64,000 nt of DNA. Source: a bacterium (GTDB lineage: Bacteria; SAR324; NAC60-12). The translations under genes were made by a program, and so were the position numbers. Each line of letters starts with the position of its first letter. Position 1 is the stretch's first letter. The stretch spans positions 768,001-832,000 of the forward strand of contig CBDBHR010000030.1 of assembly GCA_965205865.1 (NCBI GenBank), given 5' to 3'. The notes beneath the pieces are model-generated. The model made no database searches. It worked only from the letters and a program-made list of their open reading frames with translations, and was not told where the DNA came from. This document shows, one piece after another, positions 19,645 through 31,869 of the stretch.

Positions 19645-20421
19645 ATGAAAATGAAAAATACGAATCGAGTCTTGAAAATCATAGCCTTTTTGCTCTCCTT
19701 CGGGCTCATTGCCTGTACAATCTCCATCAAACTACTGCCACCGGATGAAGTCAACCAGATGGGAGCCCAAACATTCAGTGAGATAAAACGGGAGGCTCAC
19801 CGGGAAACAGACACCCGCGAAAACGCCTATGTCCAGTGTGTCGCGAAACGGATTCTAAAGCATTCCGGGGAAAATTCCGCAATCGATCAATGGGAAGTCG
19901 TCCTGTTCCGGGACCCGGCTGTTAACGCCTTTGCGCTCCCGGGAGGAAAAATCGGCATCTACACCGGACTACTGAATATGGTCGCAAATCAGCACCAGTT
20001 GGCGGCGGTGCTCGGGCATGAGGTCGGACACGTCATCCTGGAACACGGTAATTAAAAAATCTCTCAGGACCTCCTGGTTAAAGGAGGGTTGGCGGCTATT
20101 GAGCGCCTTATCAAAGACAAGGACCCGCAGGAAAAAAAGAGATCCTGGCTGGTTTGGGGCTTGGCGCGCAGATCGGTCTCGCGCTTCTTTACAGTCGCCA
20201 TCATGGATTCGAAGCAGACCAGGTTGGACTTGACCTGATGGCAAAAGCAGGATTTGATCCCCGGGAAAACCTTACGTTTTGGGAAAATATGAATCAGAGT
20301 GGCGGTCAGCCACCTGAATTCCTCTCCACTCATCCTTCCGATGAAAATCGAATCAAGGATCTGAAATCGAGAATGACGGACGCCTTGAAGCTTTACGAGC
20401 AAGCGGAAAAAGCGGATTGTG
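19645..20421 (+). pseudogene. M48 metallopeptidase lipoprotein, disrupted
   Basis: VNAFALPGG, HEVGH, then stop/frameshift; YSR..EADQVG, EFLSTHPS. Confidence 0.85.
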
Positions 20422-21835
20422 GCAACGTTCGACTAACACTCGGAGAATGGAGTTTTTGGACCTATGAAGACGGCAGTCGTTACAAAGACCCGGTGCATGT
20501 GTGGAAGTTTCTTGATCGGAACCTGGGAGATCCTGAAGACGACTGTCAACATTCTATTGGTAGTCGGATCGGGAAAATTAATAAATAACCCCGATATCTA
20601 CGTCTTCAGGAAGTCGGACAAGTTCGTAGTAGCGTGAGCAGCCGACAAGGCTGTGGATTTTGGAGAGTGAAAGTCTCTCTGTCGTCAGTTTCCCATTCGG
20701 GCGACTAGCATATCCGGTGCGCTTAGCAGGTAACTGCTTTGCGTTCTGCCCGGAAGTAAAAGTCACCGTCTGCTTTGGACGAGAGTCCATAGTGGGAGCC
20801 AACAGGGTGGCGAGCAAACCTGGAGGCCTGAACATTAGTGAATGATTGCAGCTCCGAAAGAGACTTCCGTCGTGAATTGGCTTGACGGTGTGTTGCCCAA
20901 CCGCCGACCCGCTCGCTACTCGGGGAAGGCCGAAGTTCCAAGGGAAGTAATGGGAACAGGCACCTTGGAGGGAGCCGGAGTATGGATCCAAGCATCCAGG
21001 GAAAGATCCACAGAGATAACGTCGGGAAGGGCCAACTTCCAGCAGGGACTCGCAATAACCTGCAAGGACCTACCGTATAGGGTAACACCGAAATCGGCAG
21101 GAGGATTTTGGTCTGGCGCATGAGTCCGTATGAGCGATGAAGACCGGGTAACGCTGGTCGAGGGGATGCTTGGACATCTCCCTTTTGGAGGTAACACCTC
21201 TAAAAGGCAAAGGGGCTCTCGGTAAATGGCGGGCATTTCATGAACCACTGCCGAACTTGTGTCGGTCAAGAGTGTCACCACAAAGAATGTCGAGCTGGAG
21301 ATCAAATCACTCACTCCAGGGGTGAATGCAGGCGAGTGCTTAAGCTTCGGATTGGGTGGGAAGGGTTTCTGGGGAAACGCTGTTGCTGCCAACCGGACTC
21401 GGGAAATCCGACCGTCCGGGATGAGAGGGGGGGCTTGCGGAAACGTGATGCAGGGTCTGACGCCCTTTTGCCACGAAACCGGAAACGGGGGATACATTGG
21501 AAGTCGTTGACCTAAACATGCGCGCGCCGTATTTCTACCCGGCATGAAGCGGCGAACAATGAGATCATTTGTAGAGAGTAATAATGCAAAGGAAATCAAC
21601 GGAGCCTGTGGAGCAAAGGGACTTGGCTGAGAGGAATTCTGCTTGCCCTCCTGTGTTCGGAACTCAGAGGCCGGTAAAATCAGAGAGCGGTTTAAGCAGG
21701 GTGCGCCAAACGGCAACGTTTGAGCGTCTGACTCGAAGCAGGAGCCGGATGCGTTAGCAGCGCACGTCCGGATCTGTACCGGAGGAATGACGAAAGGTGG
21801 CTGGAAACCACTATAAGTCAGTTCTTTACGGTGAC
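20419..21835 (+). mobile_element. ORF-less group II intron (outer), 5'-truncated, interrupted by a second intron
   Basis: GGAACCTGGGAGATCC (DI end), AAGTCGGA..GTAGTAGCG/ATGAAG (DII-DIII), DV GAGCCGGATGCGTTAGCAGCGCACGTCCGGATCT (21742-21775), 3' end TACGGTGAC. Confidence 0.85.
20635..21543 (+). mobile_element. ORF-less group II intron (inner), 909 nt, complete
   Basis: absent from the second copy of the host intron; DV AACCGGACTCGGGAAATCCGACCGTCCGGGAT (21391-21422); 3' end CTACCCGGC; EBS1 loop TCGCTACT at 20913-20920. Confidence 0.85.
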
Positions 21836-21904
21836 TTTGATTATTTGATTAGGAACGAGTCCAGTTTTTTTGCCCCCTTTTCATTTAATCAAAGGCCTGA
21901 CCCC
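21836..21904. repeat. GGGGTCAGGCC-type REPIN/MITE lacking its first 11 nt
   Basis: matches the reverse complement of 36101-36178 from nt 12 onward. Confidence 0.85.
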
Positions 21905-30926: not shown

Positions 30927-31284
30927 GGGGTAAGGCTTGCAAGTTTGCAAATTTAAGAAAACGTTTTTAGGTTGAGTTCTTTTAACCGCTCTTGGAGATT
31001 TGTGGATTCCTTCAATCTTTCTCTCAACTTATGCGCTCCACGACTGATAGTAGAATCATCTCGCTTGAGAGCATTTGCCACTTCCCGGATTGTTGCAGAT
31101 TTCCAATCGAAGACTGATAAAAGCGACGAGAGTCGCTGTCATCGAAAAAGTATGTTGCCCCCCATTGCCTCGAAGTATCACATGATAAAGCGCACCAGGG
31201 TAGTACAAACGCGGTTTCTGAAACAATTTGGCAAATTGAAAAAGGTTAAAATAAAAAAAAATACCTTATTTTTGCAAACTTGCA
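30927..31284 (-). mobile_element. second copy of the RAYT-derived element; one terminal repeat cut by a group II intron
   Basis: near-identical to 26464-26821; lacks terminal AGCCTGACCCC. Confidence 0.8.
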
Positions 31285-31705
31285 GTCACCGTAAAGAACT
31301 GACTTATAGTGGTTTCCAGCCACCTTTCGTCATTCCTCCGGTACAGATCCGGACGTGCGCTGCTAATGCATCCGGCTCCTGCTTCGAGTCAGACGCTCAA
31401 ACGTTGCCGTTTGGCGCACCCTGCTTAAACCGCTCTCTGATTTTACCGGCCTCTGAGTTCCGAACACAGGAGGGCAAGCAGAATTCCTCTCAGCCAAGTC
31501 CCTTTGCTCCACAGGCTCCGTTGATTTCCTTTGCATTATTACTCTCTACAAATGATCTCATTGTTCGCCGCTTCATCGCTACTACGAACTTGTCCGACTT
31601 CCTGAAGACGTAGATATCGGGGTTATTTATTAATTTTCCCGATCCGACTACCAATAGAATGTTGACAGTCGTCTTCAGGATCTCCCAGGTTCCGATCAAG
31701 AAACT
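31285..31705 (-). mobile_element. ORF-less group II intron, 5'-truncated; uninterrupted copy of the outer intron
   Basis: reverse complement of ~20506-20634 joined to 21544-21835. Confidence 0.9.
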
Positions 31706-31869
31706 CATTTTAGAAGTGGCTTATGATTTTGACAACTCTCCTCTCAACTCAACATATCTTTATCCGTACAGGTCGAAATTTTTTATTAACGCCAAACCCG
31801 TTGATCAGATGGGCACCAACGACTGCCGGCATGTGATAAACAGTCGGTCCAATTGCAAGCGCTCAAATG

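Follow-up and report, generated by a model that had tools for sequence, protein, structure and literature searches.

Twintrons, and introns without an open reading frame (ORF) that borrow a reverse transcriptase (RT), are already known, and published accounts describe systems that resemble the element considered below, an ORF-less group II intron of 909 nucleotides (nt) lodged in a second group II intron of a SAR324 bacterium (NAC60-12; assembly GCA_965205865.1). The stretch analyzed, referred to as the window, comprises 64,000 nt of contig CBDBHR010000030.1 (positions 768,001 to 832,000, forward strand). In Thermosynechococcus elongatus, identical copies of an ORF-less inner intron (TeI3, 'F3') lie in diverged outer introns (TeI4, 'F1'), which was read as evidence of independent insertions, and the RT of the outer intron mobilised the inner one (Mohr, Ghanem and Lambowitz 2010, PMC2882425). 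In Methanosarcina acetivorans, ORF-less and RT-encoding introns have repeatedly homed, in a site-specific manner, into group II introns, and such nesting gives the parasites a perpetual homing site (Dai and Zimmerly 2003, as summarized in PMC4424553). A twintron of Trichodesmium erythraeum has its inner intron within a ribozyme domain of the host (domain I); sequential splicing was shown, with the inner intron leaving first, and the authors described domain V of this inner intron as atypical (Pfreundt and Hess 2015, PMC4649490). According to a 2015 review, ORF-less introns are rare in bacteria and would hardly have escaped notice, except where domain V departs from the known forms.

The locus in the window shares with T. 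elongatus an ORF-less inner intron at one conserved site of an RT-encoding family, inner copies that are identical while the outer ones have diverged, exon-binding sites (EBS) and intron-binding sites (IBS) that fit each other, and RT acting in trans, which was shown there and would apply here. It differs from that system in that a conserved ribozyme motif of domain III serves as the target, in that the inner intron belongs to another structural class (Rfam group-II-D1D4-4 here, D1D4-6 there) and carries an AAC triad in domain V, and in that the inner family is without an RT-encoding member among the matches listed. It is like the nested introns of M. acetivorans in the repeated, site-specific homing, but, going by a title cited in PMC4424553, homing there was into the ORFs of related introns, whereas here a ribozyme domain is entered. 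The T. erythraeum twintron is comparable in the placement of the inner intron; however, that inner intron encodes its own protein, its host lies in a protein-coding context, and it is a single locus and not a family directed at introns. The chloroplast twintrons of Euglena (Copertino and Hallick) differ in being organellar, degenerate group II or group III introns in essential genes (as summarized in PMC4424553), and no active retrohoming family with covarying EBS loops is known among them. What the present locus adds to these systems is the domain III target, a large overlooked family and the AAC triad.

We consider the 909-nt element to be an intact member of a cosmopolitan, protein-less group II family that retrohomes into domain III of a resident host intron with a borrowed RT and that has recently made four independent entries; we put the probability of this reading at about 0.8. 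The window carries a 421-nt repeat twice, on opposite strands. Alignment of the flanks with the reverse complement of positions 31200 to 31800 showed that 909 nt at positions 20635 to 21543 of the plus strand interrupt a sequence that is continuous at 31285 to 31705. The second copy runs across the junction as GTTCGTAGTAGCG followed directly by ATGAAGCGG, in the unbroken string GTTCGTAGTAGCGATGAAGCGG, and the first copy holds the 909 nt between GCG and ATG. None of the target bases is duplicated, and the joined flanks differ from 31285-31705 by a single mismatch elsewhere in the repeat. The insertion without target duplication that the initial annotation had described was thus borne out, as was the presence of an uninterrupted copy in the same window; that copy is a paralog on the opposite strand, for which the term "empty allele" used there is loose. 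The insert and its host are as follows.

20635..21543, plus strand: the inner intron, a group II element of 909 nt without an ORF (5' end UGAGCAGCC, 3' end CUACCCGGC); defined by the exact insertion, relatives and consensus pairs.
20483..20634, plus strand: host fragment, 5' arm, covering host positions 249-400 (the last part of domain I, domain II, 5' half of domain III); from BLAST against full-length copies and the fold of the uninterrupted copy.
20620-20624 and 20628-20634, plus strand: IBS2 and IBS1, respectively, in the host 5' arm; from pairing with EBS2 and EBS1.
21544..21835, plus strand: 3' arm of the host fragment, 3' half of domain III, domain IVa and domains V and VI.
21584-21757, plus strand: remnant of the RT N terminus, 57 amino acids (aa), in domain IVa of the host 3' arm.
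21740-21835, plus strand: domains V and VI of the host; RF00029 match of 31 bits.
31285..31705, minus strand: host paralog without the insert, a fragment made up of host positions 272-571 and the final 122 nt; 5'-truncated and ORF-deleted.

In the fold of the uninterrupted copy, the insertion point falls in the 15-nt loop of a short hairpin between the long, branched hairpin of domain II and the domain IVa hairpin that contains the RT start codon, a position that corresponds to domain III. Together with comparison to full-length host copies, this fold agrees with the proposal that the insertion lies in domain III of another ORF-less group II intron and that the target is a conserved ribozyme motif. 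The inner intron carries a related motif, GTATGAGCGATGAAG, in its own domain III.

Four full copies of the inner intron were found in the genome (the window copy; C30:1206302; C29:627308, minus strand; and C28:263297), all of them at host position 400/401. They show no substitution in 908 nt, the sole difference being one G in a run of G, and two of the four are within complete ORF-less hosts (C30:1205902-1207503 and C29:627015-628615). The empty target, AAGTTCGTAGTAGCGATGAAG, has 31 exact occurrences in the genome, and the filled sites are 4 of approximately 35 host copies. Both elements are multicopy repeats in a metagenome-assembled genome of 30 contigs (92% complete, 3.7% contamination), a setting in which repeats might be mis-joined. 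Such an artefact is hardly credible here, since each junction string occurs four times in the assembly, on different contigs and with different outer flanks. Contigs of an independent DNA run also cross both junctions without mismatch, although with only 30 and 28 nt on the host side, just short of the 31-nt threshold used for bridging.

The arms of the four filled hosts are not identical: they differ by one to five positions per pair in 323 shared nt, some of these differences lying only 29 and 39 nt past the 3' end of the insert, and they carry different variants that form no grouping among 34 host copies. Joint divergence of host and insert would, by our estimate, have left approximately eight differences per pair in the insert, compared with the zero substitutions found. 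Substitution-free inserts at one domain III site in diverged hosts, with 31 sites empty, favor the view that the copies retrohomed recently and independently by means of an RT provided in trans. Further support for a mobile unit with its own boundaries comes from an older 196-nt fragment of the 5' part (locus L005, C29:45405-45599; 96% identity), which, within an unrelated flank, has its 5' end at the same base and so indicates that the inner intron has a defined end outside the host. L005 stops upstream of the EBS loops and is preceded by sequence that resembles the end of a transposase-type ORF. Apart from the four copies and this fragment, the genome yielded no further match to the domain V pattern or the 5' motif of the inner intron. 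A scrambled host-intron copy (L006, C28:30010-30990) contains, within its RT-remnant region, a 46-nt piece that matches domain IV of the inner intron (91% identity; insert positions 557-599).

The same distribution could be sought in a single ancient insertion followed by passive spread, through recombination or gene conversion among the approximately 35 hosts or through retrohoming of the composite, in which case the inner intron might be immobile and unable to splice. Homologous arms of 152 to 400 nt and approximately 290 nt flank the insert and would assist such exchange, mosaic haplotypes exist among the host copies, and the window copy is truncated at its 5' end, as expected of an incomplete complementary DNA (cDNA) of a composite RNA; the intron ends that depart from the family consensus and the RNA-library contigs, which give no direct sign of splicing, are also compatible with it. 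However, conversion tracts would have had to stop within 29 and 39 nt of the insert, composite divergence at equal rates predicts the approximately eight insert differences that are missing, the EBS loops fit this very site as those of most relatives fit theirs, and the L005 fragment begins at the same base outside any host copy. Passive spread is thus unlikely.

A single-sequence fold of the insert was uninformative (z -1.78). A consensus fold was built from 23 sequences, the window copy and 22 distinct relatives, and has six domains in the standard order with 188 pairs, 120 of which show compensatory changes on both sides. Paired cells amounted to 96.7%, compared with 78.4% in shuffles (0 of 500 as good) and 35 to 45% with partners slid by one to three columns. 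The window copy forms 175 of the 188 pairs, and the relatives form 162 to 187. The parts of the inner intron that are referred to below are the following.

20642..21025, plus strand: domain I, closed by long-range helices; consensus helices 2-14, including the group-II-D1D4-4 match.
20861..20866, plus strand: EBS2, AGACTT, of which GACTT pairs with AAGTT at 20620-20624 (5/6 here).
20913..20920, plus strand: EBS1 loop (core CGCTAC, 20914-20919) plus the base that pairs with the first base of the 3' exon; 6/6 Watson-Crick pairs with GTAGCG at 20629-20634, 8 contiguous including neighbors.
21122..21218, plus strand: domain III; consensus helices 18-23.
21390..21423, plus strand: domain V, consensus helix 31; hairpin of 12 pairs with CC as a 2-nt bulge and GAAAU in the loop; AGC is replaced by AAC.
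21431..21543, plus strand: domain VI and 3' end, helices 32-33 with compensatory changes; the long domain VI spans 21431-21536.

A domain V-like hairpin and a long domain VI are thus present, as had been claimed for the insert. The closing pair of domain V covaries among aligned members (GC in 18, CG in 4, GU in 1), and an upper-stem U-A pair is replaced by C-G in 5 of the 114 matches listed, with no mixed cases. The triad is AAC in all 23 aligned members, opposite G-A-U plus one extra base; its presence in all 114 pattern matches follows from the construction of the search pattern. The possibility that this hairpin is a decayed domain V was rejected on the basis of its conservation in at least 109 stretches and its covarying pairs, and by sequence AAC is a conserved trait of the family rather than a product of decay. 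A21537, unpaired, seven bases from the 3' end and in a covarying domain VI, is a candidate branch point by virtue of its position.

Target recognition provides further evidence. The sequence TCGCTACT at 20913-20920 occupies a hairpin loop with a CCCG/CGGG stem, and each of its bases is complementary to AGTAGCG (20628-20634) together with the A at 21544. We calculate that one given 8-mer is expected approximately 0.014 times by chance in 909 nt; relatives with many different targets provide a stronger control. Counts were made over 24 distinct combinations of flank and loop, the window intron and 23 relatives, leaving out two head-to-tail copies whose "flank" is another element. The homologous loop pairs with the last six bases of its own 5' flank at 6/6 positions in 21 of the 24 combinations and at 5/6 in the other 3, compared with 6/6 in 4.1% of 534 comparisons with the flanks of other elements. 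The flanks vary widely and the loops track them (ATCTAG/CTAGAT, GACTAG/CTAGTC, GGGGTG/CACCCC and TGGGGT/ACCCCA). The EBS1 assignment of the initial annotation is upheld by these comparisons, and the covariation of homologs' flanks with EBS1 favors retrohoming.

EBS2 lies elsewhere than had been suggested. The proposed sequence, GTGAATT (20872-20878), is present, but in the loop of the next hairpin, which is conserved and does not vary with the flank, and thus GTGAATT is not EBS2. The block that does vary is the six bases after a conserved GAAAT (20861-20866 here), which pair with the flank 2 to 3 nt further upstream: pairing is 6/6 in 12 of 24 combinations and at least 5/6 in 21, with 3.4% of control flanks at 6/6. 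Contigs from two RNA-library runs of one study have a 2-nt TG insertion at 20864, within the EBS2 block, and differ at a few other bases, so that the loop used for target recognition varies among the populations of other samples. In three loci (L108, L122 and L100), relatives stand head to tail, the 3' end ...CCCGAC being followed immediately by the next GGAGCAGCC. The EBS loops of the downstream copies in L108 and L122 mismatch their "flank" (1/6 and 3/6 pairs), and these arrays therefore do not derive from ordinary homing. Circularly permuted group II introns (PMC8637638) were considered on account of the arrays and rejected for the inner intron of the window, whose domain order is standard.

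The possibility that the insert is another kind of mobile element, or a structured RNA that resembles a group II intron, with the 8-nt complementarity due to chance, would be in keeping with the lack of any Rfam family at gathering score in the window, with ends other than GUGYG...AY and with a triad that is AAC and not AGC. We consider it very improbable in view of the six-domain fold with its 120 covarying pairs, the covariation of both EBS1 and EBS2 with flanks across relatives, the scores of relatives above the gathering score of group-II-D1D4-4, and a strand-specific, precise and duplication-free insertion, as in retrohoming; no DNA transposase was seen beside relatives. The proposal that the insert is an ORF-less group II intron is supported by this fold and covariation together with the absence of Pfam or RT similarity. 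The search with group II intron models was less clear-cut for the insert itself than for its family: two relatives, L126 and L110, exceed the gathering score of RF02003 (51.6 and 50.8 bits), whereas the insert remains below it.

Several observations weigh against the interpretation of the element as an intact, recently mobile group II intron. The whole window has 0 matches to Rfam at gathering thresholds; the insert scores 33.2 bits against RF02003 (group-II-D1D4-4; positions 20661-20837, E 3e-5), below the gathering score of 49, and its domain V has no match to RF00029 even at E 10. It has AAC where AGC would be expected, and the G of the triad is important for catalysis in the group II introns that have been studied. 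The textbook ends are GUGYG...AY and those of the family consensus GGAGC...AC, whereas the window element has UGAGC...GC; all 22 aligned relatives start with GGAGCAGCC and end in ...AC, so that the window element (UGAGCAGCC at the start, ...GC at the end) has U where they have G as the first base, and G where they have A as the penultimate one. It is therefore uncertain whether this sub-lineage can splice. The first and penultimate intron bases interact in studied group II introns, and one may speculate that the double change is compensatory. A T at the 5' end, as in the window element, is reported for TeI4h, an active intron of T. elongatus (PMC2882425). No more than 4 of the 35 sites carry an insert, and the host copies are mosaic, with common variants in incompatible combinations, which means that recombination is active and might account for the transfer of the insert or for renewed variation in the arms. 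Two studies provided three RNA-library runs with contigs of the insert interior and a joint that skips the 909 nt; no RNA-library contig crosses an insert junction. The skip is also found in the DNA run, 31 copies are empty, and DNA contamination is possible, and the RNA-library contigs therefore show neither transcription nor splicing, and they do not argue against splicing either. Finally, BLAST found no homolog of the insert in 63 genomes of the order, nor in 87 other genomes of the class.

Members of the family are nevertheless widely distributed beyond this class. A domain V pattern scan of one genome per species, with four free positions in the hairpin, found the pattern in at least 109 stretches from Bacillota, Actinomycetota, Acidobacteriota, Planctomycetota, Desulfobacterota, Gammaproteobacteria and archaea, and the insert is 68 to 77% identical to many of the matches listed, from many phyla, over most or all of its length. 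For 38 of the 114 matches listed, the 5' motif GAGCAGCCNNCAAGGCTG lies approximately 715 to 875 nt upstream of domain V in the stored locus, most often near 765, a spacing that implies ORF-less elements of approximately 805 to 966 nt. Of the 24 distinct combinations of element and flank, 20 are inside another group II intron, or roughly 11 of 15 distinct target sites by our grouping. Several of the relatives are inserted in the GNRA loop of a domain V of canonical type; others interrupt a region matched by D1D4-6 or lie between domain I of the host and its RT gene. Nesting was assigned from surrounding Rfam hits, adjacent RT genes and reading of the flanks, 5 of the 20 assignments resting on flanks read as halves of domain V, and the sample is biased both by being taken from the matches listed and by the requirement for a recognisable 5' motif. 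With these qualifications, the suggestion that other introns are the niche of this element is supported, and in the present genome full copies are found only in host domain III.

The literature searched contains no description of this inner-intron family that we could find, earlier work on ORF-less introns and supplements being outside its reach, and a prior description is possible. A 2022 census extracted domains V and VI with RF00029 (PMC8919778), and the family, whose domain V is not matched by RF00029, is invisible to the model that was used.

No RT similarity was found in the insert, and no Pfam family in its five longest ORFs (91 to 266 aa, either strand). The inner intron is thus without an intron-encoded RT or maturase in domain IV and is non-autonomous. 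The same applies to its relatives: tblastn found no RT ORF in the domain IV position among the 114 domain V matches listed, and Pfam searches of the upstream ORFs of 32 loci revealed no RT-encoding family member, the RT genes beside the elements being those of host introns. These neighboring genes stop just before the 5' end of the element or start soon after its 3' end, and in other genomes, among the matches listed, they are mostly closest to the host RT of the present genome. L120, a possible RT-encoding member, was rejected as a truncated element fused into a host RT ORF. The absence of an RT from the insert and the prevalence of nesting support the earlier view that an RT must be borrowed in trans. 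RT-encoding relatives elsewhere in the genome, which the initial annotation had advised looking for, were not found for the inner family among the matches listed, but the genome has at least four open RT genes of the host family (473 to 477 aa), as well as two other intron RT types. The resident host family is most likely the donor, judging from the fact that its type of RT accompanies the inner-intron family in other genomes.

The host is a multicopy family of canonical group II introns with RT-encoding and approximately 700-nt ORF-less forms. With an RT-bearing copy as reference, the family starts with GTGCGCCAGG, immediately 3' of a conserved 5' exon, GGGGTCAGGCY, and ends in ...CGGTGAC, so that its ends are the canonical GTGCG...AC. 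Full-length copies are approximately 1.96 kilobases long, encode a 470-aa RVT_1 protein and match Rfam group-II-D1D4-6 with 168 bits. More than 12 further complete copies share one internal deletion that brings together reference positions 1200 and 2465 and fuses the first approximately 45 RT codons to domain V, leaving the approximately 700-nt ribozyme. The 421-nt repeat of the window has dozens of matches throughout the genome, nearly all of which continue upstream with common sequence; the possibility that it is a complete mini-element without domain I was rejected, since most copies reach 271 nt further upstream to the canonical GTGCG start. Both host copies in the window are ORF-deleted and have lost their 5' splice site along with most or all of domain I, the filled one beginning at host position 249 (without the first 248 nt) and the empty one at 272 (without 271 nt). 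Thus, neither host is able to splice here. The nesting of one intron in another that was reported as a twintron is real, but the host in the window is a relic, and the pair is not a working twintron.

Other features of the surroundings concern the host introns and the neighboring gene. The host 3' exon in the window (21836-21904) is a short repeat of approximately 69 nt whose ends are inverted (GGGGTCAGGCC TTTGATTA ... TAATCAAA GGCCTGACCCC). This repeat adjoins many host copies, in either orientation, and the homing sites of the host intron are thus the ends of a small palindromic element that is dispersed. In other host copies, the same domain III loop is occupied, 4 nt further upstream, between GTTCGTAGT and AGCG, by a second ORF-less group II intron, unrelated to the first and approximately 903 nt long (locus L037; C28:326614-327516; C30:654282-655114; C29:approximately 728150-729060, minus strand). 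Its domain V is of the canonical AGC kind (RF00029, 44 bits), it retains approximately 45 codons of an RT N terminus, and an RT-encoding relative seems to be placed after a similar CGTAGT motif on a Planctomycetaceae contig (L104). A simple complement search gave no settled EBS1 candidate for this second intron. Upstream of the inner intron, a peptidase M48 gene is split into two ORFs (19645-20055 and 20154-20588; Pfam profile positions 2-80 and 127-185). The truncated host-intron fragment supplies the last approximately 35 codons and the stop of the second ORF, and the peptidase gene has probably been disrupted and joined to the relic. The inner intron begins 47 nt downstream of this stop, on the same strand.

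Under the retrohoming interpretation, excised RNA of the inner intron would be bound by the RT of another intron, and the complex would recognize the DNA sequence AAGTT..AGTAGCG^A through the EBS2 and EBS1 loops. The RNA would then reverse-splice into the site and be copied into DNA. The target would be a conserved motif in a domain III loop of the host family, of whose approximately 35 copies four would have been entered recently and independently. In the window, where the host is without domain I, only the inner intron could still splice, provided that it is transcribed, for example by read-through from the upstream peptidase gene.

A broader proposal is that the family is a wholly protein-less, cosmopolitan lineage with an AAC triad that lives as an obligate parasite of RT-encoding introns and homes into the domain V tetraloop, the domain III loop and domain I. 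We advance it tentatively and consider its chances to be somewhat below even. If it is true, the host ribozyme would be disabled until the parasite excises, the lineage would have escaped censuses, which start from RT genes or canonical domain V models, and ORF-less introns would not be rare in bacteria. Either the AGC triad would be dispensable for group II catalysis, or catalytic parts would be borrowed from the host.

A target in the ribozyme core would couple parasite and host, because the host would be unable to fold until the inner intron has left. The findings also bring to light an overlooked homologous family that extends from Bacillota to archaea, predominantly nested in the combinations sampled and without an RT-encoding member in that sample. 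Its conserved AAC triad would constitute a natural experiment on the catalytic center that group II introns have in common with the spliceosome.

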